Shown: positions 11,055 to 52,384 of the stretch, in pieces
Layout: each line of letters begins with the position of its first letter
How positions within the stretch are numbered: position 1 is the first letter of the stretch
Source of the DNA: Antedon mediterranea
Taxonomy: Eukaryota; Animalia; Echinodermata
Length of the DNA stretch: 64,000 nt
Direction of reading: 5' to 3'
Assembly: GCF_964355755.1 (NCBI RefSeq)
Contig: NC_092676.1
Span: 25,748,871-25,812,870, forward strand
Position numbers and translations under genes: made by a program
The notes under the pieces: generated by a model
What the model was told of the DNA's origin: nothing
What the model saw: the letters and a program-made list of their open reading frames with translations, nothing else
Databases searched by the model: none

Positions 11055-14000
11055 ATGGCTAGTTCCATTTTTGACCACGGTCTAGTGTGGTTGTCAACAC
11101 AAATCTGTGAAGAGGATGAGCTTGACTGTTTGCGATTTATTGGATCTTCTGTTTTGGTTAACCAATTCAAAGCGAAAGCAATAAACGTTTTTCAGAGTTT
11201 ACAACATCAACAGTTTCTTTCTGAAACAGACTTTGCTATTCTATATGACGCATTGCAATACATGGGGCGTAATGACTTACAAAAAGCTTTCTTAAAAAAA
11301 ATAGGCAAACAGAAGCCAAAACAAAAATCTCAATTAGTTTCCTCGTTCACAATAATGCTTATAAATGTTTGTAAAAACATTGATCCTTTTAAAGATAGAT
11401 GGGAAACTTTTTTGTTTATGTACAAAAAGAAATGTCCTCAAATCAATCATAATAAAAGTATATACTGCACCCTACAATGCCTCTTGGATAGCAATGTCTT
11501 GAAAAATGACAAAAAAAACCTAAAAAAATGTTGTGAATATCTGGAAACTGTGAACTTGAATAAAGCCAAGACGTATGTTGAGAAATACTGTAAGTAGAGT
11601 ATTTGTTGTTTGTTAATGCCAAACCTCTTATACATTAATGGCCACACTTTGAAAAGCCTGTTCTTCCTATTCTAATTAGTGCGTTTGGTATCTCTTATGC
11701 GGCCATTCCCCATAAGCGGATGGATGTGTCCAAAATTATTCACAGCAGTCGCTAATGTCTGCGACGTACAGTATTAGCCAATGTGTTGCTAAACAACAGT
11801 TAATTAGTAATTTTTTCAAACCATGAACTGATTGATTTTATTTGGTAACCGTATCAATCACATACATAAAATAACAACAGTACAAAATCATTACCAAGGA
11901 TGGTACATAAAACGCCCTGTGACACTTATTTCATAATCATGTTTTTATTGTTACCAAATTTACCAAACTTGTTAAAAAACAAGGCCAACACAACAGCCAT
12001 AAGTCGCGTGCTCTCAGAAAAAATGAACTTTCAAAAAGTAATGTACTTTAAAACTTTTCTGTACATCAAAACAATTCAAAAGTACAGAAAAGCGATAAAA
12101 CGCATAGTGATACCGGACCGACAGACAGACCGACCGACCGACATAGTGAACTATAGAGTCGCGTCCACACGACTAATAAATGAAAATAAAGATAAATACT
12201 AGTAGGCCTACACCTGACGTTTTTAATAGGCCTGCTGTTGTTTTGTTTTCAGGGTTTGTGACAATAAATGACAGGATTCAGACTATGCAAATAGAAAAAG
12301 AAAATGGTTGTGACTATGTAATGATTTTGTCATTTGTACTGTGAAGAACATTCCTGTGTTTTTACTACACAGATTTTGACCAATCATTTTTATGCATAAA
12401 GCTTTAAAAATTTGTCTGAAAATCATAAATAATACTAAACCACCTGATCATAAACAATTTTAAAATGGAGAATGTAGAGCCCTGTTGCGTTAAGAATGCT
12501 GAAAAATATCGTTTGTAGCCATAATACATGATTTTAGCCCTCTATTAGCAAGAACCTCCTGTAAGCGGCCACTTGTGGTCCCAAGGGTGGCCGCTTTTAA
12601 ACCAAATAAAAATCAAATATATATTTGGTGTTGTGAAACTATGGATACTTACTCCATAACTGGGACTAGAAATGTATTATTTCTAGTCATTCTCCGTAAA
12701 CGGGTAAATGGCAACTTTATCAAAGTATCGTCAAAAAGTTAAGACGACAGAATTTCACTCGTAAGCTCCGCCCACTTTGTTAAAGCTCATGCATAAATTA
12801 TTCATGAGCACCGTCCTGTGGCTTCCTGTTTCATAAAGTTCCTATCAAATGATCAGAGACTGTTGTATTTCTGTGTTCTGTGATCACAGTGTATTAACCT
12901 TATACTTTTTTCAGTAAATGACAATTTCTCAAGAAGCACACATCCAGGCCTGACACATCATTCAAGGTAATTAAGCTTGCTTATCTATGGTATCTTCGAC
13001 AATGATTAATATTTGGTTTGGTTTATCATTCAATATTTCAAACTTTATTTGTTCATTTTCAGGAAGATGAACAAATAAAGTTTGAAATATTGAATCATCA
13101 TACAGTAAATGTGTCTAATTACCCAACTTTTTGTATAGTTTGTTTTGTTTTATAAAACAATAATAAATGTTTACATTTATTTGGTGACGAAAGTTTTCAG
13201 GCCAATGTTCAAACAGGTTCTGTTATTTTTAATGACCTTTCTCCTAGTTTAATATTTACTTATATTTTATTGCAGTATCGTAGCTACCACCTTCCATTGT
13301 TATATATTATTGTCATATAATTTTCTCTTCTGAATACTTTTAACTTCAGCCTTGCTGCTGTACAATCTGATGAAAATGTTGACGGTGAAGAATTGTCTGA
13401 TTCTTTGTCAAATCTTAATTCAGGTAATTATTAGTTTTCCCTTAAGACATGAAGTTGATCAATGATTTGAAAAGTTTATATAATCAGAGAAGTGTTTTTC
13501 CCATTATCATTTTATAAGTAATACAATCAACACCAAAAAAATGATCAAAGATTACACTTTTTTTCTCTTTTGAACTGAAGATTCTGACTTCCTTATCCAA
13601 CAGCATCATCAGCAGGATTTTCTGATCATCATCAGATCCATCATCAAATTTAAAAGTTTTTGTGTAAGACGTTATACATTATTGTCATATAATGTACAGT
13701 AATTACAACTACAATACAGCTGTAATGAGCTGCAATCCTAAAGTGCCTGGTGACCGACATGCGGCACAAACTAGTCCTTCAAATAAAAAAAAACCTGGAT
13801 GGTTGATAGATTGAATGATGGGAAGACAGAATTCTTTTTGATCTCATCACAGACAAATGAATTCTGTTCAGCACTTTAATCTTATGAATGGTGAATCTGT
13901 GCTTTGATCTTTGTAAATGCGCTTTATAAGTAACAAATAATAATATTAGTAAATTAATACTTTCAACTTCAGCCTTGTTTGTAGAATCTGATGGAAATTT

Positions 14001-17000
14001 TATTGAGGAATTGGCTTTATTTTTAATTCTGGTATAGTGTTTTTCTTCAAAGATGAGGTTGATGAAGCGAAAGATTTTGTTTTTACCATTTTATGTAACT
14101 TTTAAAAAACAAACCTAAAGATCAGAATCTTGTTTTCTCTTTTAAACTGAAGACTCTGACCTCAATGAGGATCCTCATTCCGCATCAGCATCATCAGAAG
14201 AAAGGGCTTCTGATTGTAACAATAGGCGTACTGAAAAGAAAAAGCCTAACAAATCTGGACCAAAGAGACATCAGAACTCCAAATGGGAGAAAAAACAAAA
14301 AAAGAAGTCAAAACGTAAGCAAATTTCTCAGGATCAGGAAAATGAAGGTACTGTAACTGTTTATATAAATAAATAAAGATGAGGTTTATGAAGCGAAAGA
14401 TTTTGTCTTTACCATTTCATGTAACTTTTAAAAAACAAAACTAAAGATCAGAATCTTGTTTTCTCTTTTAAACTGAAGACTCTGACCTCAATGAGGATCC
14501 TCATTCCGCATCAGCATCATCAGAAGAAAGGGCTTCTGATTGTAACAATAGGCGTACTGAAAAGAAAAAGCTTATCAAATCTAGACCAAAGAGACATCAG
14601 AACTCCAAATGGGAGAAAAAACAAAAAAAGAAGTCAAAACGTAAACAAATGTCTCAGGATCAGGAAAATGAAGGTACTGTAACTGTTTATATAAATAAAC
14701 TAGAAAGACACTCCGAGAGTGCATACCTCCGCCTACTGTAAAATTCTCCTACATAAGATTTCTCCGGTGAAAAAGAAATATATATATATATATATTTGTC
14801 TGTGTCTTAATGCTGTTTGTGATTTAGGCTAATTTCACTACAAGCATGTGTATGCGAGTTTGGTGTAATGGTTATGTAACAAGCCTTTCAATTAACAATA
14901 GCTTCAGTTGACTAACAATAGAACAGCAACGTGAAAATCAAACGAGTGAATTTGAAAAGAAATAGGTTTTTTAAACTACTCGCATAAAAAAAAAAACGAA
15001 AAAGTGGTCCAGAATTGGGACCATGGTCCTAAATGGTCCCAAAATTTAATAGAATGGTCCTTGACCACATATCTATCCGTATATTCATTTTGGTAAAGAT
15101 CTTGTAATTACTTTTTGAGTAATCCTGCTAACAAACAAACAAACAAACAAATGAAAGCACTCAGAAACTGAGTGAAGTACTTGGCAAAATATATCCACTG
15201 ACTCGGAGCATGTTAAAAGATACATTTTTTTTGCTTTAGGCATTAGCTTTATATTGTTAAAATCCTGCTGGGGTTAATAATTTGTTTAAATAATTTTTTG
15301 ATACAAACAATTTCGGCATTGCAACAATGACCTTTCTGAAATCAAGATTGACCAGAATAATGACCGAGGAGTGCCTTGAAGCTGTGCCGATTTGCGGCGC
15401 CTCTGCCTTAACCCATGTAGTAAGCTTAACCGCTTGACCAGTCGACTAATGTTTTGGTCCATATTAAAGAATATGTCCATGTTAAAAGAAGACAGAATGC
15501 GTGCTATTTAATATATCGTACGAAAGATATATCAATTTACCTGAAAATCAATAGGCTTGTTCTGTAAGTATATACCTATGTACAGAATGAAATAAGGAAG
15601 GACACACACTGGTATTAACAAAACTAATTATCAACTATCAATAGTTAAATTTGAATAACAATAGAACAGCAACGCCAAAAACAAACGGGTGAATTTAAAA
15701 AGAAACAGGTTTTTTAAAACTACCGTATATTTCGGTGTATAAGTCGCACCTGTGTATAAGACGCACCCCCTAACTGAGAGTAAAATATCGGTATTTTTTA
15801 TATCGTCGATGTATAAGACGCACCTTATTTTTCATCAAAACAATGTTTTTTTAAATTGTAATCAATATTATTGTAATAATATATTTTGTTATATCTACAA
15901 CGGCGTCCTTTATTTAGGTTTTTTCATACCTAGGCTCGGCCGCGCCCAGCCTCAACAAGTTCTTTCTAACTTGTTATTCATGAGTTTCGCCGCAACATCG
16001 AGTGCATGATGACCGTGTGTGTAACACGTACGTGTGTGGGCTAGCCTCGCTCGATCATTTCGAGAGGGCGCACGTTTTCACGGACAATCGTATTCGATTA
16101 GTATCTATGTATCCGAGAAGTGTATACGCTAGGTCCATGCTATAATCAACTGGAGAATATACTAGTCGAATACCGTACACCATGTGGCCGCCAAGAAGGG
16201 TTTGCGCTAGGCTAGGGGTACGGCGGTCATGCGTATAACTATAAATACACCATGTGGCCACCAAGAAAGGGCTTGCGCTGGGGGTACGGCGATCGTGCGT
16301 ATAACTACTGTATAAATAAATACTATTCTAATCGTACGTAAACGTTTACAAATGAAATTTTATGGGAGCGCCATAATGAACAAATCTTTTCATCATATTT
16401 AGTATAACATCATGCTAAAATGCCTTGAAAACTAGGCAGAAGCAGGTTGCCGTTACGTTAGTTCGTTACTGTAGCTAGGCCTAGCCTAGCAGTAGCAAAC
16501 GAGGTGACGATAGCATAGGCCTATGTACAATCTGTGTGGTGAGGCATTTATGTTCGGTGTATAAGACGCACCCTTAATTTAGAGGTCAAATTTGCGTGTC
16601 AAAAGTGCGACTTATACACCGAAATATACGGTACTCGTATGAAAAAGCCGGTACATTGAATCAACTTTTGTTTTAAAATTACAAATCACAAATTATAACC
16701 CTTGCCTCTTGTCCAAAAATGAGGTTTTTTGGACAAGTACTGTAGTTCTCGAGAAAATGTAATTTCAGTTTACGTGTTACTTTAAAACTGCTCACCGGCT
16801 TTTGAAAATTGTCTCCTATCTTGTAACACTAGCCGGTCTGAAAATAATATCATTTTTGTTATTTGTGAAGTTATTAATAAACCAATGTTGTTGATTTTCA
16901 ATAGGCATGGTCTGAAAGTATAAACCTATCTACACCCAAAAATTCAGAACGATAACTTGAAAACAAACAAACAAACATACATACAAACATACATACACAC

Positions 17001-17531
17001 AAACAAACAAAGTGAATACTATACTTGGCAAAATTCTTTTTGCCAAGTAACAAACAAACAAACACACGCTACCGATTACATATACCTCCTTGGCGGAGGT
17101 AAATAATAAATAAATTATTGGTAAAACTGTTAACTTGTTACACTACTGTATCTTATGAACCAAACACTTTTTTATTCAGTAAAATTGGTTTAGAACCTTC
17201 CTACTGCAGTTTCCTAGAAACAAATGGTTATTAGGTTGTTAAAATTTGTTTGTTTTTTTTTGTTGCAGATAATTGGTTTTTTCTTTCTGTACTAATTCCT
17301 GTGATTCTGGTCATCCTTTCAATAGTATTGTATGGAATATACCATTATTTTGATATTAATGTGTGTAAACTGTTTACATTCTCAGGCCAATGTACAACAT
17401 CATGTGTGTTTCTTCTTATTTTAATTTTTTATGGTGGTTTGAAGTGGATTAATAATGATGAGCTAAATTTTATACAGTTTTGTACAATAGCTTATAACAT
17501 TTGTAAGGATTTAACTAATTGTTTTAATTAA
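11055..17531 (+). CDS. Gene A: tandem-DED + linker + 2-TM membrane protein, about 455 aa (437 aa without the tentative exon). Exons 11055-11589, 12253-12306 (tentative), 12915-12966, 13350-13423, 14153-14347, 14479-14673, 17269-17531
   Basis: The DED-DED exon has ELDCLRFI, ALQYMGRNDL and a second DED starting VSSFTIMLINV. All listed junctions are GT-AG and phase-compatible. The terminal exon is hydrophobic (WFFLSVLIPVILVILSIVLYGIYHYF; CVFLLILIFYGGLKW). Exon structure parallels gene B. Confidence 0.75.
11977..12178 (+). mobile_element. Helentron/DINE-like short element; related copy on the minus strand at about 41915-42035
   Basis: aacaaggcc start, (GACC/GACA)n microsatellite, 3' hairpin agtcgcgtccacacgact; the 41915-42035 segment is its reverse-complement relative. 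Confidence 0.6.
14049..14700 (+). repeat. 326-bp tandem duplication carrying a 195-nt Lys-rich coding exon
   Basis: Near-identical units with a 326-bp offset (exons at 14153 and 14479). Confidence 0.95.
14698..17102 (+). mobile_element. Helentron-associated (HINE-like) element with nested insertions, in the last intron of gene A
   Basis: Subterminal tacctccgcc near 14725; 3' hairpin tacctccttggcggaggta near 17083-17101; (AAAC)n microsatellite. A second similar element at about 15150-17050 (tacttggcaaaa...ttttgccaagta) sits inside it. Confidence 0.65.
15723..16631. mobile_element. Tc1/mariner (pogo/Tigger-like) MITE with TA TSD
   Basis: TIR ccgtatatttcggtgtataagtcgcac, perfectly inverted at about 16605-16631 and flanked by TA on both sides. 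The empty-site equivalent (ttttaaactactcg) is visible near 14970. Confidence 0.9.
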
Positions 17532-18119
17532 TAATAGTATAAAAAAGAATTGTTTTAGTCTTCTTGACAGGTAGACAAAAATTACAGTACCTCAAATTTA
17601 CCAAAACATCAATCATTGTTTATACAGTACTGTGCTTCAAATTTGGGGTATTGGCCAAAACCTATGATGTACTGTATAAAACAAAATTCAGTGACATGAT
17701 CATAGTATTAATAGGTATTGTATAAATAAATAATTAATTGCATTTAAGCATTTTATCAGTACACTGTACATAGAGTAGTTTTTTTATTAGATGTTTTTAC
17801 TAATTTTATAATATATAAATTTAAGTAGTTATTTTTTTTTAAAGTAAGTAGTTTTGAGGTATGTGTATTTAAGCATAGAGGAATTCACCCCTTTCAAGGG
17901 CGTAGTGGGCATGTGTACCCTCCCACTGAGGCATTGCCCGCAGTGGATCAGCACTGTTTTGAATCCTCTGAATAAATACATACATTACCAGTAAAATGGT
18001 TGAATAGTGCAATTTCCAGGGAAATAGGTTCTATATTCTCAAAATGTGATTCCACCTCGGCCAACCATTGGAGCCAAGGTTTTTCATTTATAAAATTTTG
18101 CCATTCTGGGCAAGTAAAT

Positions 18120-18348
18120 TTATTTAATGAGGGTGATCCATCCAGCTAATGCTGATCATTAGGGACCCTCAGAGGTTCATAAGACAAATATATACACAAG
18201 ATGCTCTACATAAACAAAGTCTTATTACAGGTCTTTGGGAGTGGAGTTGTAATTTGGTCCTTAGAAAAAATCCTGACATGTGACTGGACTTGAACCCAGG
18301 ACCCTTGGAATGGTAGCCAAGCATCATAACCACCAAGCCACAACTCCA
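18120..18348 (-). mobile_element. tRNA-derived SINE
   Basis: Minus strand GTGGCTTGGTGGTTA...GGGTTCAAGTCC (A and B boxes), followed by a non-tRNA body and an AT-rich tail. Confidence 0.65.
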
Positions 18349-19795: not shown

Positions 19796-22700
19796 GGGGG
19801 GGGGGGTTCGAAACTAGAGACCCGAGACCAGAGACCCGAGACCCAATACGAAAAGGGAGACCGCACTATACGAAAAGGGAGACCCAAAATGTACGAAAAG
19901 GGAGACCCCAAATATACGAAAAGGGAGACCCAAATATACGAAAAGGGAGACCCAAATATACGAAAACAGAGACCCAAATATACGAAAAGGGAGACCCAAA
20001 TATACGAAAAGGGAGACCCAAATATACGAAAAGGGAGACCCAAATATACGAAAATGGAAACCTAAAATATACAGTTATTACGTCGGCCCAGAGCCGCCTT
20101 AACTGTAAAAACTCAAAACCAAAGTTTTGTTCACAGTCAGTGTTTTAGGTCGGCCGAGGGTCGCCTTTCGAACGTTCACAACAGTTGTTTTCCGCCGAAC
20201 TCGCAGGCAGGCAGCTCGCTTGGCATGCTGGGAAGGGGATATTCTCAAAACACAATATAGTTGACCCTATGAAGGCGACCCGAACAATTTCAATCATTAT
20301 CCAATATGACACATTACACAGAGCAGATGTTATAAACATCTGTATTATTTAATATACAGCCGAGAATGTTACATTCTATTTTTACTTCTTTCGCATTAAT
20401 TAATATTTACATTTTATAAAAATAGATGGGAACACAAAAGATTGAAATATATATCATTATTTCCTATTGACAGTCGATTCTCTAAACTTTCATCAATGCA
20501 ACAACGTACTCCCGCCCTGGCTAGTATCTGGGCTAGTAATTATATACAAGGCCCTTGTTGCCCTTACTATAAGGAAGCGGCGCGAGTGATTTTATTTTAC
20601 TAGGATGGGTAGGAGGAGAGTTTGCAGGCTTATTTACACAGCGTTAAAAGCTTCACTGTATCAATGGATACAATATGTACACTTGTAATAGAGAAGGTAG
20701 AGTCGGTGGTGGAGTTTGTCTATATTTAAAAGAACAAATCAACACCGTAACACGTGATGATTTTGTATTTAATGATAACTCCATTGATTCACTTTTTCTA
20801 GAAATAATAAACACAAACGGCAAAAATACTATTGTAGGTATGTTGTATCGACCACCAAATTCAAACGTCAACTCATTTAACTCTGATCTGGAAGAAATCT
20901 TACATAAACTTAATCGCGAAAACAAAAACTGCTATATCTTAGGAGATTTTAATCAAGACTTATTAAAATATGACATTCAAAAAACAACACAGGAATTCAC
21001 AAACATTATTTACTCAACATCTTTTAATCCATTAATCAACTTACCCACCAGAATAACATCGTCTTCTGCTACAATTTTAGATAATATTATTACAAATGAT
21101 GATAACATTTCGCATTGTGGAGTAATAGTCACTGACATTACCGATCATCTACCCATTTTCATGACAACACACTTGTCATTAAATACTAACACACAAGCTC
21201 CAATTACAAAACAAAAAATAATTAATGATACAACATTAAATAACTTGCTTATTGCTATTTCTAATGAGGATTGGGGTGAACTATATTTATGCACAGATAC
21301 CAATACATCATATAACCTATTTATTAAAAAACTATCCAATCTCATAGATAATAACATACCTACAAAAAGTAATAAGCCAAATGGTAATACAAAGAAAAAA
21401 CCATGGATCACAACAGGAATTTTGATTTCAATAAAAAAGAAAAATAAACTTTATAAAAAATACCTTAAAAACCCAACACAATTATTAAAAAATATATATA
21501 AAAAGTACAAAAATAAATTAACTCATTTAATTAGAATTCGGAAAAAAACAATATTATTCCAAAAAACTGGATGCAGCTCGACACGATTCAAAGCAAACAT
21601 GGAAAGTTTTAAATGAAGTTCTAAATAGAAAAAAATCGAGTGTTAAGCCAAATGAGGTAATTAACCATAGTAATAAAACTTTGGTATGTGATCCAAAAGG
21701 TATGTCTGACGCTTTTAATGACTTCTTCTCCAACATTGGAAATGAATTAGCAAACAAAATACCGAATGTAAACAATTCTGACTTTAAACAATATATGAAA
21801 GAGAGTCAATCCCAATCCATATTTTTCAATCCTACGAATGAAGAAGAGGTCATTGAAATAGTTAGTCAAATCAAAAATTCAAATTCAGAAGGTGTTGATA
21901 ACTTAAGTAATCGCATTCTAAAACATATTATTGCTGCTGTGGCATCTCCTCTTGTACATATCTTTAACCTCTCTCTTGAGACAGGCATGGTCCCTGATAG
22001 TATGAAAGTAGCTAGAGTAGTTCCAATTTTTAAATCTGGCAATAAAAGTGACGTCAGTAATTATAGGCCGATCTCTATTCTGCCTACCGCTTCAAAAATT
22101 CTTGAAAAAATTGTTCAAATTAGAGTAAATAATTATATCACAAAGTTTAACATCCTTAATAATGCACAATATGGTTTCAGAAAAAACAGTTCTACTTTTA
22201 TGGCCGTTATAGATCTGGTTGAACGAATAACCGATGCGCTTGATAAGAAAAAAAATACCATCGGAATATTTATTGATTTGTCAAAAGCGTTTGACACCAT
22301 CAACCATGATATACTTCTTAAAAACACTATGGCATAAGAGGCACGGCCCTTAAATGGTTTAGAAACTATATTAGTGGAAGGAAACAATTTACGTCTATTG
22401 ATAACACAAGTTCGTGTTTGATGGATATAAATTGCGGTGTACCACAGGGTTCAATTCTGGGGCCTCTACTTTTTATTTTGTACATTAACGATGTATTTAA
22501 TTGCTCAAACTCGTTATCTTTTGTTTTATTTGCTGACGACACAAACATATCTGCATCTCACGAAAACTTGGATACGCTCATAGAACTAGTTAATGGTGAA
22601 CTAAAAAATGTTTCGGATTGGTTCATGTGCAATAAACTATCAATCAACGTTAAAAAAACTAATTACATAATTTTCCGCAATCAGCGAAATCCAAGTAATT

Positions 22701-29890: not shown

Positions 29891-30643
29891 TACAAAAAGT
29901 TATAAATAAAAAATGTAATTTATCGATAACAGTAGTTCATTTAATAAAGACGACAAAAGGTCATTTAATAAAACAAACAGTACTGTATTCGTAATATTTA
30001 ACATGTATTCGTTTATACTTATAAAAAGAAGTAACACAAATCTTTTTTTATTCATATAATATGTACCTACAACTACAACAAAATACGGCCCCTCTTAAAA
30101 CTTCTATCCCACAGACGGTCGGAAGTTGGTAGTTGGATGTTGGTAGTTTGCTGCACATTTTGTTTATAAAATCTACAAATATTGTTTCATTTATTTTATG
30201 TCAAAAAATCTTCAATTATGCTGCCTACCGATCAAATCCATGAAATTCAGTTTGTAGGTGTTAAATTAGACTTAAACATATCACATGGAATAGCCATATA
30301 AGCTTTATTAAAAATAGGATAAAAAGAAATCTGTTTAGTTTACGCCATATTGTACCCCGTAATATATTACTTATGCATTATAAATCATTTATTCAATCAA
30401 TTCAAAAAGTCTGGGGTAGTGCGTATAAGTCGCATCTATATCCTATTTTACTTATCCAAAAAATGTGTCTTAGATGTATAACTTTCTCTGATTTTATGGC
30501 TCCATCTTGTCCATTATTAAAGACCTGGGTATTTTAGATGTTTTTTTTTTTTTTACATTACAAAACATTACTTTAAAATACTTGATTCAATCTCTACACT
30601 AAAACTTGACATCTTACAATTTTCTTTATAGGTTTCAGTGAAG

Positions 30644-36600: not shown

Positions 36601-39528
36601 AAAACTGCATCTGTTGGAACATCATCTGCCGAGTCTTCATCTCCAACTATTAACACCTCATCCTCTTTCCCTTTTCCTTTAACGGTCTTAGGTCTAGGCA
36701 TCCTTGTTTGTTGTATAGCCTATTCCCACGTGTACTCTTGCTCACCTCACTCAGCTAGTCACTAGAGTGAACACTGCCTGGCTAGTAGCTTCCGGTTTGT
36801 GGCCTAGGCCTAGCTTTTGGATAACGTGTTAACATCAGATTCAAACCAAACCAGGTGCTAATTTTACAGAATCCCAACATAAATAAGATATAAATGACAC
36901 TTAACCACAAATTCTGTTTATAAAATAATTAAAACCGGATAATTTTGGAGCCCTTGAGAGAGCAAAATCCTAAATATCCACATGGTCCAAAACGCCCTCA
37001 AATGTAAATGTATGCTTGTTTTTTTTTTGGACTGTTTCAAATAAATGTAAATGAAATGAAATGAATGGAAGAAAGTGTACACTGAATGAAGTAAAGAAAG
37101 AATGTGCAATAAGTATGCGGTATCTCTCATTTTCTTACACTGGAGCACATCAGTTCAGAATTGAATGGATCCAGATTATCAATTTTGTCTTCTTTTCTAC
37201 TGTCATTTTTACTTTTTTTTTATAAAAGAATATAAATATATGTTCAATTTTTATTTTGATTTGTGTAAAACCTTATTTAATTTTAAATGCGATAACATTT
37301 GTAAAATCAATGAATGCAAATAATTTATGGCACAGAGAAGTGAATCTCTAAACATTTAGGATTTTATTTTCACAGAAAGCATACAAATCATGCTTAAAAT
37401 TTGCCTAGAAAGTTTTTCTGATGTTTTTTTTAAATGGTGTTTTTATTTTAGTGCAAAACAATCAAAATCTTCCTGAAAGAAGAACCAGCCAGCTTTCAAG
37501 TTCAAGGTAAATAAATAATTTAACTAATTATAACATTGTATTTTGGAGCAGGATAAACAATGCACTTTTACTGCAAATTCATTAATACACTTTTTTTAAG
37601 GTACATATAAAAATATTACCAATTAAACAACCTATGCCTAGTCTGATATATGTCGTGATAAAAAATATATGTATTTAAATAGAATGAGATAATGATTTTT
37701 TATAATTATATGGAGGCCACCCAGCTTAATTTTTAACTAGCATCCTGTTTTTTTACAGTTATACATTTAATTTTCTTTTCTACAAAATGATTTTAACTTC
37801 AGCTCTGTTGATGCACAAACTGATGGACAAGTTGGCAATGAAACGCCTGTGTCTGCAAATGTTAACCCAGGTATTTAATATTTTTAATGGAAGAGTTTAC
37901 ACTGAATGAAGTGAAGAAAGAGTATATACAGTACATAGATAACCATTCAATTATTTTTATTTATTTGTTGAAATTAAACCTTAATTTAATTTTAAATTAA
38001 ATTTCAATTAATGAAAACAATTTATGGCACTGGCAACAAGTGTTTTTTTCTTTCTCATTTCATATTAAAAATAACAAACAAAACTAATAGAGATTATAAA
38101 AATGTCATTTGTTTTTTTAAGATGATGTTTTTGATGATCTTCAGCCTGCAGCAACAGAAGTTGATTCTGATAATGCTACTGACATCAAACAAACGAATGC
38201 ATCAACAAGAGGGAAAAAAGATATGGTAAAATGGGGAAAAAAAGGTAAAACAACTAAATGTAAATCATATTTGCCCAACAGAGGGGCCATGCATTCAAAG
38301 CACAATATCATTTTTAATGGGCTGGGTGGGGAAAAGGATCCAGAGGCTTGTAAAAATACATTAATTTTGTTATGTTTGTTTCTGAAGGATTAACAATATT
38401 GGTAACAGCTGGATATACAACAGATATATTGGCCCTTGAAAAAAATATTTTTTTGTGAATAGGCCATTTTAATATCATATAATAGTTTGACAGAAAAATT
38501 GAATTAAATAAATATATTTATTTACTGTACCTGGTAAGTCCGTAAATTTTAATTTTTTAATTAGTCAACCGGAAACACATTGTCAATGGGTTTTTGATTT
38601 TGTCTTATATATAAGCAAAATTATTTTTTTGCAAAAGCGAATTACAAATTGGATTTTTCAAAGTTTTCATACATCTTTATTGGTTCATGTTTTTGAGAGA
38701 AAACATACTATTTAATGTTTTTTTTCCTATTTCAGAATTCCTGTGGTCGTTATTTGTGGCACTGATTGTCCTTGTAGCATGGTCATACCATTACTTTCAA
38801 GCTGCGCAAACATTACACTATGGTAAATGAAACATAGACCCACCTATCATTTTAGTATTATGGTGAATTAAATAAGACCCCATAATACATACAGTATCAT
38901 GTTGTTTTGCTAATTTAATATTAATTCAGTACTTTATTAGAATGTATTGTTTATTTTACCAGCAAGTAAATACTATAGTAATGCTTCCTAAGATTAAACT
39001 TTCCACAAATAAACAATACAATATTTGAAAAATCTGACATAAGATTTGGTTATGGCTATATTGTCAAACAAATAACAATATGTGCTGCTACAACTTACAA
39101 GAACCAAATACTAAAATATTTCCTTTGTTTTTTCTATTTCAGGAATCTCATGGTTATTAATTTCTGGATCTCTAGTGGCTTTGATTGCCCATTTCATAGC
39201 ATTGACATTTGGTTTCCTTCAGGAGGCTAAACAATCAAATTATGGTAAATGCATTGTCTTCCTACCTTTCATCATCATCATGTTACTTGTATTAATTAAT
39301 TATTATGATGATGTATCTGGAATCCAAAAAGGAGGTTGCATTTCACTTCTTATATTCGTTGGTTCAATGTTTTTCCAATTTGTTAATCCAGTATCTAAGT
39401 TGGGAAAGGTTGGTTGTGTGTTTATAGTTATTATTTTATTTGCATTCACGATTTATGGTAAAGATGCCCTCAAATATGTAACACCCTTTAATGTTCTTTT
39501 TAACATATTAAAGTCAATTTTGGGCTAG
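30644..39528 (+). CDS. Gene B: tandem-DED + linker + about 5-TM protein, 461 aa. Exons 30644-31196, 31964-32009, 32424-32491, 37452-37506, 37803-37870, 38122-38244, 38736-38822, 39143-39528
   Basis: The DED-DED exon is clearly homologous to gene A (EELDTLRFISSSVL, ALQSMGRLDL, SQLISPFTRMLINV). All junctions are GT-AG and phase-compatible, summing to 1386 nt without internal stops. The terminal exons are strongly hydrophobic. Confidence 0.8.
31370..31920. mobile_element. MITE with (TTAAA)GATGTATTGTCCC termini; partial relatives near 1759, 41100-41392 and 49710
   Basis: gatgtattgtccctt at 31372 and aagggacaatacatctttaa at 31901-31920. Confidence 0.7.
32664..36800 (-). mobile_element. Near full-length CR1/L2-group LINE, antisense in intron 3 of gene B: ORF1 (36701-35948, one frameshift) and ORF2 (35908-32943, one frameshift)
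   Basis: ORF1 has a coiled coil plus QYSRRENIEIRGI, RPIIVKF, IYVNENLT and YKYLWTYNGRIYVRK. ORF2 has HINIRSL, LSEVW, GDFN, SDHL, DLKKAFDTV, GVPQGSVLGP and LFADDT. 3' tail is aataa(aaag)n. Confidence 0.95.
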
Positions 39529-42329
39529 AATTGTGTTTTATGCATCGCATTACCAAGATCCTGGATTCACTGTATGCAAATCATTCATTATACTCTTCAC
39601 CTGTATTCATGTTAATCATTCTCATGACACTAATAATAATAATGTATTTATTTACTTTTGTAACAGTGGCACACTTCGATATGAAGGTGTGTTCTACAAT
39701 CAAAATTTACTAAAACCACATTACAATGCTAACTATACAATTTACAACAATAATAATACAAATTTAATATGAATGAAACAGTACCTTTGATATTTACAAA
39801 CCTACTCCTTCCCCACCCCAAATCTAGCCTCTACAAATCCCCATTTTTCTTTAATCAACATAACATTAATAACATTATAAATTTAAATTAATACAAATAA
39901 TATATAGTAATAATCAGTAATAAGTTTACACACAATTTAAGAGATCAGATTTTTTCACAAGGCTCTTACATAATTTATCCGTCAATTCACAACAAACATA
40001 GTCGTTTCCAAGGATAAACTGCAATTTTGTCTTAGTTTCCAATTTTTCAAATCTTGAAAAACTTTTTTAAGGCCATTGGCAACAAGTTGTTTTTTAAATT
40101 CTGCAAATTCATGTTTTCTGATGCTATCAAGTGCAATTTAACATGTCAAGTAATAATCATTCACATGGCAAACCTCAAATGAGGCATTCATTCCTAGTAG
40201 TAAACTGACCAGCCAATTACTCATCTCTTAACAGTTAACAAATTCTGTAAAAATGTTTGGGAAGGTTACTTTGTCATCAAGCATTTTACAAAAAAAGTTA
40301 TAAATAGAGAATTAAAAAACAAAATGGTATAGGCTACTATATGGCAATTGCTTTTATAATTTTGAAAATCATGAAATATAAATATTGTTTATTTCAAGGA
40401 TCTCATTAACTTTACATTATCTTTTTATTAGTATATATAACCTCTCCATTGGCTTCATATAAAAAAAGAATTTTGTACAAAATTATTGTTTTTTTTTTAT
40501 AAATGTATTTTTCTTTTTTCATTTCATTTATTTCAATATCATTATCGCAGCCTTAGCTGTATTACAAAGATATTTACATTTTCTCAATATTAAAATTTGT
40601 ATAAAAGTATAAAACCAATGATAATTATATATAAAAAAGGAGGCAATTTACACAAGAAAAACAATACAGGAACATTCAAAAAGTTTAGCTTAAAATATTT
40701 ACTGTGTTAATTGTTCCTTTGTACCTTTTTTGATTTAATTAGTTTAATCGTGATCAGCTTTCATGTACAATTACAGGTGTCATCTTTGCTCCTCTAATGA
40801 TCCCACCCAACTTTTCGGTCCACGATCTAATCGGAAAGCTGGCGATTTATGAGGAACGAATTTGGCACCTCTATTTAAACGCCAATTTAAAACTTTTCTT
40901 TTTAATTAATTATGGTAGTATTGTACTTATTGTTAGGCGCTCTGTTCTTTTTAGGGCGCCATATAAAAACTTATAGAGAATAGTAATAGGTACTTTTTAT
41001 TGATTGCAAATTATAATGTTTGACATATTCTAAAACCAATGGGTACAATTGATTGTAGACCTAATAATATTTTATGTACATAGTATTTTTGTAAAGAAAA
41101 ACATGAAAAATGAAGATTACTAAAATCAGAATTTGAATAGGCAATTTTGCAGTTTTATTAAAGTTATTCACTTCTGTAGAAAAAAAAACGAAAGAATATA
41201 GAATTTGTTATTTCACTTATAAAAAGACAAAAAAAGCAGTAAATTTAAATCCGACAGACAATTTTTTGCTTTAAATTACATATTTTTTCTCAATCCACTT
41301 TTTAGTCAAAGTGAATAACTCTTATGTGACATTAAAATTGCATATTCAACAAACAATTAAAAAAAAATTTTAGGGGGACAATATATCTTTAATACAAATT
41401 ATATATTTAAACAAATTTGTATTGAAATGTACCTGTGTAGGTAAAATAATCTTGATTATCATGAAATATAAAATGTTGCTGTTGAAGTACTATTAAATAC
41501 ACTATTTAAAATCTAAAATGTTCTCACTTGTAATTTTGGCCCTGCTCTCTGCAGACAAAAATTAACCAATATAAATGAACCAATAATTAACTAATGTTCT
41601 GTGGAACAGCATTTAACCATGGAGTGTAAAATTGTTACAGATATCTAAGAATCCGATAATTCTCATTCAAATCAGATAGCCAATATGATCTGAACTGCTG
41701 TGATGAACAAAATTATTGCATTGTGGGAAAGCTCTTGGTATTACGGTAATGATTGGTTGGTCATGCATATTTGATTTAAATTTTAAATTAATTTACAACA
41801 AAAAACATTTACTGTATACACTGTGTTTTAATGTGTACAATGTATTAATAAAATAAAATATAAGTATAAAGAAAAACAGGAATTGAGTACCCTTTTATCC
41901 ATGTAATTTATATTTTTAGTCGCGTGCAACATGACTCTACAACTCACTATGCTGGTCGGTTGGACGGACGGTCGGTCGGTAGGTCGGTAAACACTAACTT
42001 GAGCAAGCGACTGCAGCCATCTATATGGCCTTGTTTTATTTTAAAACTTTGCACCATGTGCGTATCTCTACCTGTTAAACTATAGAGAGGAGGCGTGTGT
42101 GTATATATACACTATCTTTGGTAGTAACAATTACAATAATAAAATTGTAAATTATAGGTAAATAAAAAGAAATAAATATTAAACGTAAGGAGACCAGTTT
42201 ATCCTAGCTCTACTACTACTACTACTGACCTAGGCGAGCAGGGATTTATTAGGCCTAGTAAACTAGCAGCCACTGATACAGCAGCTGGGCCGAGCCTTGA
42301 CTGTCATTTATGGTACTGGAGTAAGCAGT

Positions 42330-42815
42330 AGACTGGGACTAAATTGCAGTCTGACCAACTGGAAAGTATCCAACGTAGGGCACTTAGAATCATGTTCCCA
42401 AAGCTCAGTTACAACAAAGCAATGGATCAATGTAATGTGCCTGTGCTATGTGAACGTCGAACTAGACTGTGCAAGGATTACTATCAGAAACTTAAAAACC
42501 CTTCCCATAGACTACATCACCTTCTGCCAAAAGCGCCTAAATCTAGATACAATTTAAGACAAGTTAAAGAATTTTGCATTCCAAAAGTAAAAACGGAACG
42601 ATCAAAAAATTTCATTGTAAACTTTGGTCTCTTTCACAAGTGGTAGGCATAAATATCACTGCACAGTCGTTTCTCCCCCTGTCTTCTGTTTTGTCTGTTC
42701 TTCGATGGTTTGTGTATTTTGATTGTTATTGTTGATGGATAGGATATATTTTCATTTAAGTATAAGTATATATTTTTGTATAATTCAACCCAAAAGTTGC
42801 AATAAAAGTATTTTA
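42330..42815 (+). mobile_element. 3' fragment of an L2/Daphne-like LINE
   Basis: QLESIQRRALRI...NPSHRLHHLLP...RYNLR...PKVKTER peptide, followed by a 3' UTR and aataaa. Confidence 0.8.
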
Positions 42816-43603
42816 TCAGTTTATCTACTGTAGTCTAGCTGGCAGTAGCAGGCTTAGCAACACTAGACTGAACTAGGACTGACGACTGTGCTTCAATTTG
42901 TTTTAATATAGTTATTTAGTATGGATATGATTATTTTTATAAATAATATACAGGTATAGTCTGGGTACGGCCTCCTGGGTAATCAGCAGGCCTAGTCCTA
43001 TCTAAAACTAACATTAATAATAATAATTTTTCTTTGTCATATCTTTTACTTATTTTATGTGGAACAATTAAAATGAATAAATGAATGAATACATATGTAC
43101 CTGTTTCTGTAGTGTATGGAGGAATTATATTTTAACTGAGGTACTATAGACCTAATTATAATAGAATAGTTAGTAGGTAGTAGCCAGCTAGTACTGTAGT
43201 AAAATACTTATTATTTCCTTTCAGTATTTAACTTCTGTATTCCATACATACCACCAAGGTACAGACAAGCAAATTAGACATGAGATTTGAAGGAAATAGC
43301 GGGAGACACTGACGGGTTGCAAACCACCCTAAGAATGATAATTAATTGTTAGCACACTCAGATTGCATTATGATTACACTACTGAGAGAAAACACCAAAG
43401 TGATAGAGCATATCATTATGTTACTGGCTCAAAATCAGTACAATATTTGCAAAAGAAAAAAATACTGTATATTGCAATTGATAAATAAATATACTGTATC
43501 GACCCACATTTATACTGTGCATGGGTTAATGAAATTTGATTCCGAATTATTTTCGGTATTTTATTTGTAAAAATTCAGACTTGCTGGACTAAACCAATAG
43601 TTC

Positions 43604-43768
43604 TGCTACCTAACAACAATAGAGAAATTATTGCATTTGGTTCCGTTGTTTAAAATCTGTTTTTTGAACGATGTTTTGTTGATTCTTTGGTTAGCTGAAA
43701 CATCTTGTAGCTGAGCCTGCAACTATTGTGAGAAGTTATAAGCGTGAATCCTATGCTATCTAGTATTG
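43604..43768 (-). pseudogene. Duplicated fragment of the Bmt2 last exon
   Basis: Near-identical to 52383-52548, with a few substitutions and a 1-nt deletion (atgttttgtt vs atgtttttgtt). Confidence 0.9.
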
Positions 43769-43984
43769 GACTGTTTCAACTGGTATTGGGAGAGTTTCAG
43801 GTTTTCAGAGAGTCCGGTATTGGAAGAGTTGAGTGTAGTTTGTGTGAAATGTAAAGAGATATCTATGTTGTGCATATGCTGCATTCATTCCTACAAAGTT
43901 AAATTCAACATGAACTATTTTTCTACATAAACATGCAATTATATCATTTGATTATTAACCAAGAAAGGATGAGGTTTCTAAAAG

Positions 43985-44356
43985 GTAAAATCCTGTTGCT
44001 GACATATAAGGCCATCAACGGATGTGCTCCAGCCTACATATGTGACATCATTACTCCGTCAACCAACTCTTCGCTTCGTTCATCCAGCAGACTTCTTTTA
44101 AAACCTGGACCCCGTTCCAGAACTCGGTTTTACGGTGATCGTGCTTTCGCTGTCGCAGCCCCAAAACTCTGGAACACTCTACCCCTCGAAATACGCTCAT
44201 CAAAATCTGTTATCACATTTAAAACTAAACTCAAAACTCATCTCTTCAGAGAAGCATAATCACACGCTACTACTTGCACAGATCTTGGAAAACACAGCGC
44301 TTTGAAACCTTTGTCTCTTGCGCTTTATAAATGTTATTATTATTATTATTATTATT
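43985..44356 (+). mobile_element. 3' fragment of an L2 LINE
   Basis: KILLLTYKAINGCAPAYI...GDRAFAVAAPKLWNTLP...FKTKLKTHLF; 3' stem-loop agcgctttga...gcgctttataaat and a (TAT)n tail. Confidence 0.9.
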
Positions 44357-44773
44357 AAAACAAATCTCTTTGCTAACTCTTTTATCCCCTGGTATCATCC
44401 ACCATAACAAGAAAGTGAGAAGATATTAAGTTTTATGTTTTTTAATCTTGTATATTGTATTGTTTATGAATGTAATTTTATGCCTGAAAATTTTATGTAT
44501 GATGCAATAATTTTTTTGTAGGACAACCTCAGCTGGAAATTAAATACGGAAATGATACTTAGCAAAAAAGGGACATCAGAGACTCTACCTACTGAGAAAA
44601 CTTTATGTTGATAAAACTATTGTTAAAATATTTTATAACTCTTTTATATTTTATAACTCTTTTATGGAGAGTGTTCTGTCGTTTCTATCTCAGGGTCAAG
44701 CATACAAATTCCTTACAAAAAAATTGTTAACTTCCAAAGTAACAGGTTTTATCCTATATTCCTTTTGTGATTG

Positions 44774-44952
44774 AAGCGTGGTTCCCACTAGCCAGCGACG
44801 CAACGCAAGGACGTAACGCAACGCAAGTAAATTGACCAATCACAAGCGATGACTTATTCGCTTGTGATTGCAAACTGTCTATAACTTCGCTTGTCATTGG
44901 TTAAAACGCTTGCGTTGCGTTTACGTCCTTGCGTTCTAGTGGGAACCAAGCT
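44774..44952. mobile_element. Palindromic Harbinger-like MITE
   Basis: agcgtggttcccactag...ctagtgggaaccaagct termini; almost wholly self-complementary. Confidence 0.8.
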
Positions 44953-45109
44953 TTAGAAAATTTTAACCATGCTCTTTATAAGGAATTTGAAGTGTTGCCT
45001 CATGGCTGTCTAATTCATTTGTGCCTGCTGCCATCAGACTATTAAATAAATAAAATTAAAATTACATTTTTATTACAATTAACATTTTATGATTCAAGAT
45101 TTAAGAGTT

Positions 45110-45592
45110 TTATGTTAAATGTTAAAAATGTTAAATGTAAATGTTAAATGTATTATTACTGGTCCTCAAATTTTACTGGAAACTGAGGAAATTCGGATTA
45201 GGCCCTCCACGGACCCACGGCAGCCAGCAGTGCAGCGCCTACCAGATCAGCACACCGGGAGACGATCCCCTACTCTTTTCGAATAGTGTACCAAGTTCTT
45301 TAACGTGCACTGTTAAGTACACGGGACCAACGGCTTTACATCTCATCCGAAGGACGAGGCAATGAGAGTAAAGCATCTTGCCTAAGCATGCAATTAGTAT
45401 GGTACAGATCGGCTCAAACACATGCCTATCACATGCTAGTCCGATATTATTATTACACCATCACTCTCCAGTATATACAGCACCAGCTGCTATTTCTAGA
45501 CGGTCTCCCATCCAGAACGCAACCGGGCCCAACGTTGCTTAACTTCGGTGATCTGACGAGAACCGGTGTTTCAACGCAGTATGGCCGTATAT
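45110..45592 (-). mobile_element. 5S rRNA-headed SINE with a Deu-domain core (SINE3/AmnSINE-like organisation)
   Basis: Minus strand TACGGCCATAC...CTCGTCAGATCACCGAAGTTAAGCA...GGATGGGAGACCG (5S). Core CTTCGGATGAGATGTAAAGCCG...CACTATTCGAAAAGAGTAGGGG resembles the Deu domain. (CATTTAA)n tail. Confidence 0.8.
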
Positions 45593-46884
45593 ATTTGATG
45601 TTGTAATTTGTACTTTTTATTGTACGATGATGTAATCCATCTCCTTTTTGTTAATTATCTATGAGGGATGAATAAAAATATATACTACTAATTTCCCATG
45701 TTGGACGAATAAAACTTATAATATTACTTATTATAACATGCAACATTCCTGTTCAACTCAAAAGGGCCTAGGTTATTGGCAATATAAACTCAATTACACA
45801 GTACAATACATTAAATCATTGGTATGCAATTACACTTGTTGCAGTATATGAAAATCATGTCTCGAAAATCAATGTTTTATGCAAGTTATAATCTTAATAG
45901 TTCATAAATTCAAAATAAAATGTTTTCCTTCCATAAATATGTAATTATAAACAAGTATTCCTTTTTTCCCATGTAGCTAGCATTTTTGGTTAAAGGTATA
46001 CATTTAAACACTGACATTTCCTGTTCAATATAAAAGGTGTAATTGGCATAACAATAAACCCAATAGTAGTATAGTAGGCCTACGTTGCAGTCATTGATTG
46101 GTGGTAGCATATCATGTGATGACGCGTGCAGGTGTATTGCAACACAATCGTGAAATTCAGTTGCTTTAAGGTGTTGTTTAGTACATTAATATTCATTCTT
46201 GCTGTTGCGCTTTGATGAATTTGGTGAAGACACGTACATTTTGTGAGACAGAATAACCCAGGAGACAATTTAATAGCAAGTATGTTAACCTATTAAGTAG
46301 TAGTTGTTGGAATAAGTTACCGACATATAGGAAGTTGTTTTAACTAAACTATTTCCTCTATTTATGGTATAATTAATACATAGAGAAATGTTGTAATCTA
46401 GAACATTCTCTGGATATACCCCATTAGCCAGAGCACACTGTTTACAGTATTTTATAGGAGATTATGCTGTATTATAATGTACAATGTAATAAGTAAATCA
46501 TTATAGTACATTTAGTACTAGTAGTAAAAATGTCTATACCTGCTAATGGTAGGTATGGTATATTCAGAATAGTAGGCCTACAATATAGGGTTGTCTAATT
46601 GTCTCACTCAAAACTGGTAGACCATGATATTGTTCATGTATGTTTAAAAAAATCAAGTTTTCCTTTATTTAGAAATTCTACATACAGAACTTATTAAACG
46701 ATGCCCTTTATTTGGTTTATATCCTGAGAGAATTGCCTTGTATTTGATGATAATAATGCTGATAATAAATTGGTACTCAAACTAAACTCTTTCCAGACTA
46801 AAGACACCCATCATGGTATTGAATTATTAAATGAATTAATTAACTTAACATTCACAGTTATTTTCAGACAAACACATACACACA

Positions 46885-49132
46885 ATGGCAGACCAAAGAA
46901 GCAAGTTTGACGATTTGAAATTTGAACTTGGTCAGAAGTATGATGGTAAAGAATACAAGAAACTGAAGTTTTGTCTCTTTGATTATTTACCACTAGGAAC
47001 CCTTACCAATAAACATTCCAATGGAAATACTTTATTCAATGCACTTGATGTCATTAGAGGCAAAGGTGTTATCTCACCTAATGATGTCAGCCTTCTTTTA
47101 GAAATTACAATGCTAACAGGTCCAGTGGATGCCCAAGCACTTGTAGAAGAGTATATAAAAGCTAATCGTAACTATATTCACAATGCAAAGGAAAATAAAT
47201 TGTCGCCATATAGGAGACACCTTTTTAAGGCTGTGGAAATAGCTAAACCAACTGCGTTAACAAATGTTGTCGATAACTATGGATTGAGACAATATGAATA
47301 CAAAAATTTGTGGGATGCCATATTTGAACTGGAAAGTGACACAGTTTTAGCAGATGAACCAGATAAAATTAAGAAATTTGCAAAATATCTTGGAAAGAAA
47401 TCACAGGATGAACTACAAAAAATACAGAGTATGGGTAAATATTTTAGATATACTTTCTGAATTCATAAAATGTACAATTTATTTTGTTTTTTACATAATA
47501 TCCTCTTTGACAGTCATTTTACTTAAGTTATACTTATGATAAAAAGGAAATATTTTCCATTAATTATATTGATTTGTGGAAATAAACTTGCATTTGATTT
47601 GAAATTTACAATAACAATAAATAATATAATTAAAAAAAATGTTTTTTTGTTTTATTAACATTGGAAACAGAACTAAAATTAATGAAAAATCAAAACTTTT
47701 TTTTTTTTTTTAGGTGAAGTTCCTGAACTTTACGAGGATTCTCGTTCCACAGAAAAATCAAAAAGAAAGCTAAAACAGAGAAAACATGAGAAAAAAGATG
47801 AACAGAAAGTGGATGATAAGTCAGAAGACGCAAAACTTCAACAGGCTCAGGAGAATAAAGGTACGAGCATTTTGTATAAGGAAGACAAAATATATAATGA
47901 AGATAACATTGATGATATAGGCCTACAGTATCTTTATTGATGAACCCATAATTATTATTTGCAGGATCATGTTCATTGAATAAAATTTATTTTAGAACAG
48001 TAGGTAGTATTCTAGAATATTTTTATTATTCTACAGTCAATCTTTCAACTCATGAAAATATTCTTTATTCAGAATACTGTATCTAGACCAGGGAGTTGTA
48101 TTTTTAACAACAACTGTATAGACTATGTTGTTGAACAAAAAACAATGCTACAATTTACAGATTATAATGTTTTTGTTTTTGTTTTTTCAATTTCAGGAAT
48201 ATCAAGGACAGCAGCAATCATTTTAGTTGCTGTGATTGCTGCTTCGATATCATATCTTGCATTACAAGGTAAATGAAATTAATGTTTTTGCTGGGTGTAC
48301 ACATGAAATGTTTATCCTTTCTAAAAATCGCAGTATTTGAAAAAGTTATTCAGAATAAATCAAAGTTACGGTTTTTTTCTTTTTTTTTACAGGAATTCTA
48401 TTGTGGTCAGTAATCATTTCTGTAATAATAGTTGCTCTGATTGCTGTTTTTATAGTGTGGAAATTTGATTACATTAAGGGTGCCATTACATCAAATCATG
48501 GTAAATGAAACATGGTATATTATCATTGATGGTTTAAAAAAAAAATGTTTATTAATTATTATTTAAGTTCTAAATTTGTTCATTCAGTAGCTCCAATTCA
48601 TATAGTGTGTGATGTTATTGTTTTATTTGTTTGAATGTTGGTTAATAAAGTTGCCATAAACATTTTTGGCATTTAGTGATTATAATGTTAATAGATAATT
48701 TTAACCACTGGCAAACAAGGTTTTTTTAAAGGCATTTTTTTATATTGTACTTAGTTTAAATTTTCATACACTAAAATATATGAAACAAATCCAGTTATGT
48801 GATGCTCATGATCAATTTTTTTTTTTTGTGTTTCAGAAATCGCATTTTTCATATCAGGATTAATAGTGGCTCTGGTCCCGCTTTTCATAGGATGGATTTT
48901 TTTTCCTTCAAAACATTCATTTGAAATACTAGCAGGTGTATTTTCTACCTTGATTTTCTATGATTTTTTTGTTTGGTGGTTGTGTTTAGGATTTGTTTTA
49001 CCGATTCCTAAAGTTTTACAAATAATAGCCATAGCTGTGGTTATTATCACTGTCCTAGTTGCTGTGGTGCTCTTTGGTAAAGATGTTTTTGATTTGTTGT
49101 CATTTAGGAGTATGCTTAGTGGTATCCTATAA
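46885..49132 (+). CDS. Gene C: divergent tandem-DED + charged linker + 5-6 TM protein, 390 aa. Exons 46885-47434, 47714-47860, 48197-48268, 48393-48500, 48837-49132
   Basis: DED-like KFDDLKFELG...LKFCLFD...LFNAL...ISPNDVSLLLEI, with a second unit starting LSPYRRHLF. All introns are phase-1 GT-AG, 1173 nt open. The C-terminus FGKDVFDLLSFRSMLSGIL matches gene B YGKDALKYVTPFNVLFNILKSILG. Confidence 0.8.
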
Positions 49133-52280: not shown

Positions 52281-52384
52281 TTTAATAGACATTTGTTAGG
52301 CAGAAACAGTTTCTATTTAAATTTATTGTCTTTATTGTTTTATTTGTACAAATACAAACTCTGAACTTAATTTATAATTATGTG

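Follow-up and report, generated by a model that had tools for sequence, protein, structure and literature searches.

In vertebrates, tandem death effector domains (DEDs) are confined to caspase-8/10 and the FLIPs, and they reach membranes by way of a death receptor and FADD. The death receptors (TNFRSF) are composed of a signal peptide, a cysteine-rich ectodomain, one transmembrane (TM) segment and a C-terminal death domain. MAVS, a single conserved gene, consists of a CARD, a linker and a C-terminal TM segment formed by one tail helix, and BAR is a multi-TM protein linked to caspase-8 signalling. BAP31 is likewise a multi-TM protein tied to caspase-8 signalling, and its 'vDED' is described in PMC3742741 as a coiled coil without DED likeness. 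Invertebrate death-fold expansions place a constant death fold on variable sensors, as in the DED-NACHT NLRs of amphioxus, sea urchin and Nematostella and in DED-TRADD-N proteins (passages of PMC2575513 and PMC3879445), and the anthozoan membrane-bound NLRs described in passages of the latter have 3-4 N-terminal TM helices. Proteins that combine one DED with a TM segment have been predicted before: parts of PMC8195603 report a Crassostrea virginica expansion with the predicted order ectodomain-TM-DED-TRADD-N, and its supplement holds one 'DED+TM+GT4' row from the hemichordate Saccoglossus. Here we analyse three co-oriented + strand genes, A, B and C, in a 64-kb stretch of DNA from the crinoid Antedon mediterranea (the window, to which all positions refer), each modelled as a tandem DED joined through a linker to predicted TM helices.

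Gene models were built from GT-AG introns with phase-compatible joins, and all three read without internal stops. Each opens with a coding exon of 535-553 nt followed by a phase-1 GT donor; the tested stretches, which left out LINEs and some other parts, held three open frames of at least 178 codons, where 100 shuffles averaged 0.02. The model of gene C was built independently of RefSeq and is letter for letter XP_071955754.1/XP_071955755.1, a 390-amino-acid 'uncharacterized protein' of Antedon mediterranea. Its coding exons (46885-47434, 47714-47860, 48197-48268, 48393-48500 and 48837-49132) specify a tandem DED, a charged linker and five hydrophobic helices, without a caspase. The DED exon (46858-47434, with the ATG at 46885) encodes an NLR-type tandem DED of 183 amino acids. 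The linker exon ends in QENK G/GTAC (the slash marks the exon boundary), the next two exons are single-TM exons known from the RefSeq model, and the last coding exon carries three helices predicted by model and hydropathy, a GKD motif and the stop, followed by a 3' untranslated region (UTR) that extends to at least 49583.

Two sequencing runs bear on the splicing of gene C. The record of run X1 carries no RNA label, and the run was judged to be RNA by its exon-only cover and its splice-site ends; run X2 is DNA, and may be the source of this DNA. X1 covers the DED exon (contig 46858-47430), the linker exon (two contigs), and the final coding exon together with the UTR (contig 48834-49583), and falls to zero depth over 45970-46599, 47482-47607 and 48112-48615, all of which X2 crosses in one contig. 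The X1 DED contig begins at the acceptor 46858, preceded by nine letters that match 46271-46279 and are followed there by GT, a coincidence with a chance expectation of 7e-4. Because two in-frame stops lie ahead of the ATG at 46885, we read 46271-46279 as the end of a 5' untranslated exon and 46885 as the start. One X1 contig links the predicted donor 47434 to the linker exon, a joint absent from X2. The two X1 linker contigs are distinct, each with 11 differences from the window, and both continue at the predicted donor into in-frame hydrophobic sequence (QENK-EISLFFIAL and QENK-GVSWFFITL), neither of which is the window's exon 3; in the X1 contig of the last exon, a diverged in-frame version of exon 4 precedes it. 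The order DED, linker, TM is therefore transcribed, while the window's own exons 3 and 4 rest on the RefSeq model. A first-pass annotation of this DNA had joined the DED exons to the TM exons by splicing, and for C the X1 joints carry this from DED to linker and from linker to hydrophobic sequence, leaving the window's two single-TM exons uncovered. We regard the DED-linker-TM layout of C as almost certainly real. As a separate observation, the X2 contigs 45617-49741 and 37809-39682 are long and unbranched with a depth of about 150, against 270-290 for some other listed contigs; the cluster could be on one haplotype only, or the deeper contigs could be two-copy repeats.

The fold of the N-terminal module was examined by profile and by model. 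Pfam matches to DED are weak and fall under the curated cut-off (E 3.4e-7 for A, 4e-5 for B and 1e-3 for C). A profile of the three first exons matches the caspase-8 prodomain across both DEDs with E 6.5e-5, and a 35-sequence profile does so with E 3.7e-9. AlphaFold2, run on the 35-sequence alignment, gave the DED exon of C a predicted local distance difference test (pLDDT) score of 94. Its top Foldseek matches were the tandem DEDs of caspase-8 and cFLIP (TM-score 0.67-0.72), and re-comparison with Foldseek's 139 chains placed it on the caspase-8 tandem DED 4zbw with Z 15.8 and a root-mean-square deviation of 2.6 A over 162 residues. Two six-helix DEDs packed as one rigid unit are thus seen in C by model, and the assignment of A and B to this fold is by profile only. 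The true tandem DED that the first-pass annotation had expected was recovered by both routes, the profile pointing to the caspase-8 prodomain and the model to the tandem DEDs of caspase-8 and cFLIP.

Genes A and B are probably real spliced DED-TM genes as well. Gene B is modelled as a protein of 461 amino acids. Its first exon (30644-31196), recognised by Pfam and by likeness to the first exon of A, encodes a tandem DED of 184 amino acids with GRLDL, a Y-L motif in DED2 and a phase-1 donor. The predicted linker exons (31964-32009, 32424-32491, 37452-37506, 37803-37870 and 38122-38244) include a duplicated two-exon unit (repeat D12, 86%), and the sixth donor of the gene was picked from several phase-compatible GT sites. 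A predicted single-TM exon of phase 1-1 (38736-38822) and a predicted last exon (39143-39528) with up to four TM helices, the GKD motif, a stop and a donor-like site at 39244 were placed by model, hydropathy and alignment. Between the duplicated linker units lies a LINE-type (long interspersed nuclear element) retrotransposon on the - strand (32946-36580), identified by Pfam endonuclease and RVT_1 matches, with its ORF2 in two frames. Its family is found in X1 as a 3.3-kb contig, and a second LINE-type element with a split ORF2 occupies 20648-23356 (+).

Gene A is modelled at 437 amino acids. Its first exon (11055-11589), supported by Pfam, profile and model, encodes a tandem DED of 178 amino acids with GRNDL, an F-M motif in DED2 and a phase-1 donor. 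Two predicted linker exons (12915-12966 and 13350-13423; repeat family D13) have GT-AG introns, phases 1-2 and 2-1 and a layout like that of the linker exons of B; they are followed by a predicted basic exon in two tandem copies (14153-14347 and 14479-14673), part of a 300-nt repeat (D7) that is 97% identical, each ending in QENE G/GTAC, and by a predicted last exon (17269-17531) with 1-2 TM helices by hydropathy and a stop. The three genes had been put at about 455, 461 and 390 amino acids; the length of C equals that in RefSeq and that of B agrees with the model, whereas the phase-compatible sites examined yielded no version of A with 455 amino acids. Acceptor-like sites directly precede the ATGs of A and B, so an upstream exon, coding or non-coding, is possible in both. 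Two spliceable death-domain exons at 268-1663 (+; Pfam Death E 8.5e-9 and 4.9e-7) form the 3' end of a co-oriented tandem-death-domain gene 9.4 kb upstream of A; fusion of A to these exons was ruled out because they end in a stop at 1663.

Comparison of the three genes part by part gave different answers for different parts. The first exons of A and B are 46% identical at the amino acid level, with a ratio of nonsynonymous to synonymous change (pN/pS) of 0.57 (0.44-0.74), and for the last exons of B and C the ratio is 0.65 (0.49-0.88); both values are uncorrected, with silent sites near saturation. The TM regions of B and C, including the GKD motif, are clearly related (z 8.2, 0/1000 shuffles), and the TM exon of A is weakly so (z 2.7 to B and 0.8 to C). 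The basic exon ending in QEN-x-G/GTAC is seen in the models of both A and C, with a protein z of 3.0 (14/1000 shuffles). The likeness of B and C in the TM C-terminus and that of A and C in the basic exon, like the shared DED and linker layout of A and B, had been noted in the first reading of the sequence and were upheld. The DED of C is 17-18% identical to those of A and B, at chance likeness to A (z 0.2) and barely above it to B (z 3.2, 12/1000 shuffles). For this reason the genes are best described as mosaics rather than the plain paralogues first proposed: A and B share a DED, B and C share a TM module, and C carries a DED of the crinoid NLR type. A tree of 30 rows, drawn from the 87 modules, puts the DED of C in one group with two NACHT-LRR proteins, P0004 and P0005, and the short protein P0007 (support 100/98), with the DEDs of A and B on a long branch distant from this clade. 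An approximately unbiased (AU) test on these rows did not reject a clade of the A, B and C DEDs (p 0.106, with the long branch), which leaves branch support and pairwise scores as the basis of the mosaic reading. The linker exon of C showed no link to NLR linkers. Between B and C, the segment 43604-43768 is a 97% copy of 52383-52548, where a BMT2/SAMTOR-like exon (- strand, 52388-52639) ends, which is a sign of recent local duplication.

The interaction surfaces of the DEDs follow the same division. The RxDL motif has a functional role in DEDs. At the end of DED1, GRxDL is kept in A and B and is replaced by GPVDA in C. Caspase-8 extends DED chains through F122/L123 of DED2, according to the parts of PMC3477315 consulted, in which a role for RxDL was not found. 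By profile alignment this pair corresponds to F-M in A, Y-L in B and D130-N131 in C. Across the 87 modules of C's clade, NLRs included, the F122 position is alanine in 29, glycine in 19, serine in 7 and aspartate in 7. A and B appear able to seed caspase-8-type chains, and C appears tuned to a crinoid-specific partner. A single function, caspase-8-recruiting or FLIP-like inhibitory, had been proposed for the three genes; A and B keep the FL-like pair and GRxDL, which fits the recruitment of a caspase-8/FADD-type DED, and for C, the one gene shown to be spliced, the role of caspase-8 platform is doubtful because of D130-N131, GPVDA and the grouping of its DED with crinoid NLR DEDs.

Gene C belongs to a large crinoid family, defined here by a tandem DED with E < 0.001 against C in a phmmer search of 1.84 billion representative proteins. 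The search returned 68 matches, of which 67 (C included) match through the DED; P0066 was matched only by charged and hydrophobic stretches and was removed from the DED counts. Pfam annotation of all 68 gave as fusion partners NACHT-LRR, Roc/COR (ROCO), URGCP-type very large GTPase, RING/B-box-NHL (TRIM), ZU5-UPA, kinase, MAM, ubiquitin, TIR, NB-ARC-TPR and Death, and a caspase in none (0/68). Species was looked up for 21 of the 68, and every one is a crinoid (18 from Antedon, 3 from Anneissia). A protein may hold as many as four tandem-DED modules; P0002 (XP_071952312.1) has four near-identical ones in a row, then Roc-like domains. The lineage expansion suggested by the three genes alone thus extends to at least 67 crinoid tandem-DED proteins with many fusion partners, and the cluster makes up one corner of it. 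The DED-TM protein had been expected to be free of caspase and NACHT domains, and Pfam finds neither in C (P0001); the caspase motif QACxG is also missing from models A-C and from all six frames of the window.

Twelve of the 67 have a hydrophobic segment of at least 1.8, two of them (P0002 and P0025) doubtful, and only C has more than one at this threshold. The TM-bearing relatives include tail-anchored proteins (P0012 and P0030), tandem DED-TM-MAM proteins (P0055 and P0031), tandem DED-TM proteins with a small domain (P0034 and P0037), proteins with a hydrophobic repeat between tandem DED and NACHT (P0053 and P0062) and an Anneissia protein (P0059). P0055, P0031 (XP_071963913.1 and XP_071963970.1), P0034 and P0037, all from Antedon, are predicted type II 'inverted' death receptors, with a kinase ahead of the tandem DED in two; their contigs are equal in length. 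In the NLR-like Antedon proteins P0053 and P0062 the hydrophobic repeat is of low complexity, and a single pass would place the tandem DED on one side of a membrane and the NACHT domain on the other. A single origin of six TM-bearing DEDs was rejected in the 30-row tree (AU p 1.5e-109), the group being defined by TM content but named after the first tree had been seen. In an 87-row quick tree the TM label needs 11 changes for 13 rows, a number equalled by 75 of 500 shuffles. On the AU result, TM fusion arose more than once in the crinoid tandem-DED family.

Hydropathy (19-residue window, Kyte-Doolittle value of at least 1.6) calls five hydrophobic segments in C, up to five in B and two in A (2.9 and 1.8); against the common multi-TM layout proposed for all three genes, A has only these two. 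The predicted helices are nearly all aliphatic with few polar residues, the C-terminal tail is amphipathic-looking, and a lysine-rich stretch precedes each hydrophobic set in A, B and C, whose N-termini are not hydrophobic. The TM part gave no Pfam family match and no fold match. A single-sequence model of full-length C (pLDDT 54) was too poor for a fold search, and atlas structure searches with the whole protein and with the TM part gave no usable match, which shows neither novelty nor absence. In a comparison of the DNA, the opening 100 letters of B's last exon, as far as the donor-like ATG/GTAAATG, align with the single-TM exons of both B and C, with z values of up to 18.7 that are inflated by included flanks and single-letter shuffles. 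The genes differ in how many TM exons they have, and these exons repeat part of the beginning of the last exon; helix number thus appears to have grown by partial duplication of that exon.

Differences between X1 and the window were taken from a listed subset away from contig ends. The coding part of the last exon of C differs at 13 of 296 letters and the UTR at 5-6 of 451 (p 0.006-0.015), and exons 3-4 are less than 85% identical to their X1 counterparts. Overall, 21 codon changes and 6 silent ones give a pN/pS of 0.93. This variation fits diversifying selection on the TM part, and it also fits relaxed selection or paralogues mixed in the run.

Our tentative reading is that A, B and C are membrane-embedded, variable immune sensors with a DED output. 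The DED would be the constant output, and the multi-TM part would stand in the place of the variable sensor, which NACHT-LRR takes in the nearest DED relatives of C. The N-terminus would be cytosolic, given the lack of a signal peptide and the basic residues ahead of the first helix. A change at the membrane, whether a ligand or pathogen protein at the short loops or membrane damage, would cluster the TM modules, and the clustered DEDs would then seed a cytosolic assembly. With their caspase-8-like FL and RxDL surfaces, A and B would seed chains of the FADD/caspase-8 type, and C, which has neither, would engage a putative partner common to crinoid NLR DEDs. A bolder version would have crinoid 'DED receptors' (type II TM-MAM, tail-anchored and multi-TM) wire a tandem DED to a sensor without a death domain or FADD, and would make the multi-TM module of the cluster a hypervariable recognition unit that detects pathogen proteins or non-self tissue, is diversified by exon duplication and between individuals, and triggers DED assembly; this version is speculative and, on balance, unlikely.

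Several results weigh against the sensor reading. Splicing is supported by reads for gene C only, and A and B are predicted models. Across 30100-49900, where repeats dominated the read comparison, no contig or joint on the exons of B was listed, which carries no information on its expression. A word-based protein search did not find gene A as a protein of 313-2000 amino acids, or either A or B as one of 97-322 amino acids, and while that search is insensitive (one match where phmmer gave 68) it should find identical sequences. Within C, the short side of the DED-to-linker joint is 30 letters where the bar of the tool is 31, and paralogues or a different population may be the source of the X1 linker and TM exons. 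The pN/pS of 0.93 suits relaxed selection as well as diversifying selection, the protein has no ligand-binding domain and inter-helix loops of 2-17 residues, and the TM helices are called from hydropathy and from a model whose confidence in the TM part is low (pLDDT about 60).

In an alternative that we consider somewhat unlikely, the TM part serves as nothing more than an anchor, and the protein is a membrane-tethered adaptor or decoy whose DED captures activated, DED-bearing assemblies of NLRs, ROCO proteins or caspases on an organelle, amplifying or capping them. MAVS is an anchored precedent for amplification with CARDs, and the short FLIPs and the CARD-only and PYD-only proteins are precedents for capping. 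The DED of C is indeed a copy of an NLR-type DED, the sister NLR P0004 is on a contig equal in length to that of C, simple tail-anchored tandem-DED proteins exist in the family (P0012 and P0030), and C does not have the F122/L123 pair that caspase-8 needs for chain extension in the consulted parts of PMC3477315. That loss is no mark of a decoy, however, because a small residue at the F122 position is the rule in the whole clade, NLRs included, and a plain anchor has no need of as many as five helices differing in number and sequence. Birth-and-death debris from frequent exon shuffling, with C transcribed but drifting and A and B silent or decaying, is a less likely account that applies mainly to A and B. 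It would explain the X1 ratio of 0.93, the failure to find gene A as a protein, the LINE in the intron of B and the degenerate linker-exon copies in A at about 13581 and at 13973-14031. Yet every modelled exon is open with matching phases, the ratios for the first exons of A and B and the last exons of B and C are 0.57 and 0.65, and in the last coding exon of C, though it is more divergent than the UTR, the listed differences include neither a stop nor a frameshift.

The least likely account makes the TM module an effector, in which DED oligomerisation driven by upstream sensors assembles the helices into a pore or membrane-damaging complex. Multiple TM helices with short loops and an amphipathic-looking tail would suit such a role, and membrane perforation is among the effector modes listed for such systems in parts of PMC8195603, but the helices are almost purely aliphatic, their number ranges from 2 to 5 between genes where a fixed pore geometry would not favour it, and the TM part matches no family or fold.

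Elsewhere in the window, exons for the C-terminal region of a 5'-nucleotidase lie at 62733-63649 on the - strand (Pfam E 2.5e-12), and a 22-nt minisatellite occurs in both orientations within 5362-5742, 19839-20088 and 24094-24453.

A spliced natural tandem-DED membrane protein and at least 67 crinoid fusions suggest that, in a basal echinoderm lineage, the module is in general use as an output of immunity. A full-text literature search, with most subscription journals outside its coverage, found no description of a tandem-DED multi-TM protein or of a crinoid DED expansion, in line with the initial view that the architecture was not an already described family, and crinoid immune genes did not appear in it. 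With such a protein it can be asked directly whether clustering at the membrane suffices by itself to seed DED chains, and the variable TM exons are a candidate polymorphic recognition locus. If the sensor reading is true, signalling would proceed without FADD, the usual death-receptor adaptor.

Compared with known systems, the cluster resembles caspase-8/10, cFLIP and viral FLIP in its two-DED fold (C) and, for A and B, in RxDL and a putative FL-like pair placed by profile alignment, but has TM helices instead of a caspase or pseudo-caspase domain or a short soluble tail, and C has neither motif. Unlike the TNFRSF death receptors, its proteins have no hydrophobic N-terminus and no ectodomain, and the DED is N-terminal. 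With MAVS they share an N-terminal death fold, a long low-complexity linker, a C-terminal membrane anchor and the lack of an enzyme, and no homology is claimed; the death fold here is a tandem DED in place of a CARD, whereas MAVS has one tail helix and is a single conserved gene. C differs from the DED-NACHT-LRR proteins in having no NACHT or LRR by Pfam, and only its DED groups with theirs. The order of BAP31/BAP29 is reversed, with a true DED fold N-terminal to the TM part and no Pfam match, where the BAP31 vDED is C-terminal to it. The anthozoan NLRs are likewise invertebrate immune proteins with a multi-TM module, but as passages of PMC3879445 describe them it sits on NACHT-LRR in the effector position, and here it replaces NACHT-LRR. 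Invertebrate DED expansions, in the portions of the cited papers that treat them, carry one DED, further domains and one TM segment, whereas in the cluster a tandem DED and a module of 2-5 helices are the whole protein. The architecture is a new one within a known theme, the shuffling of death-fold domains among invertebrate immune proteins.

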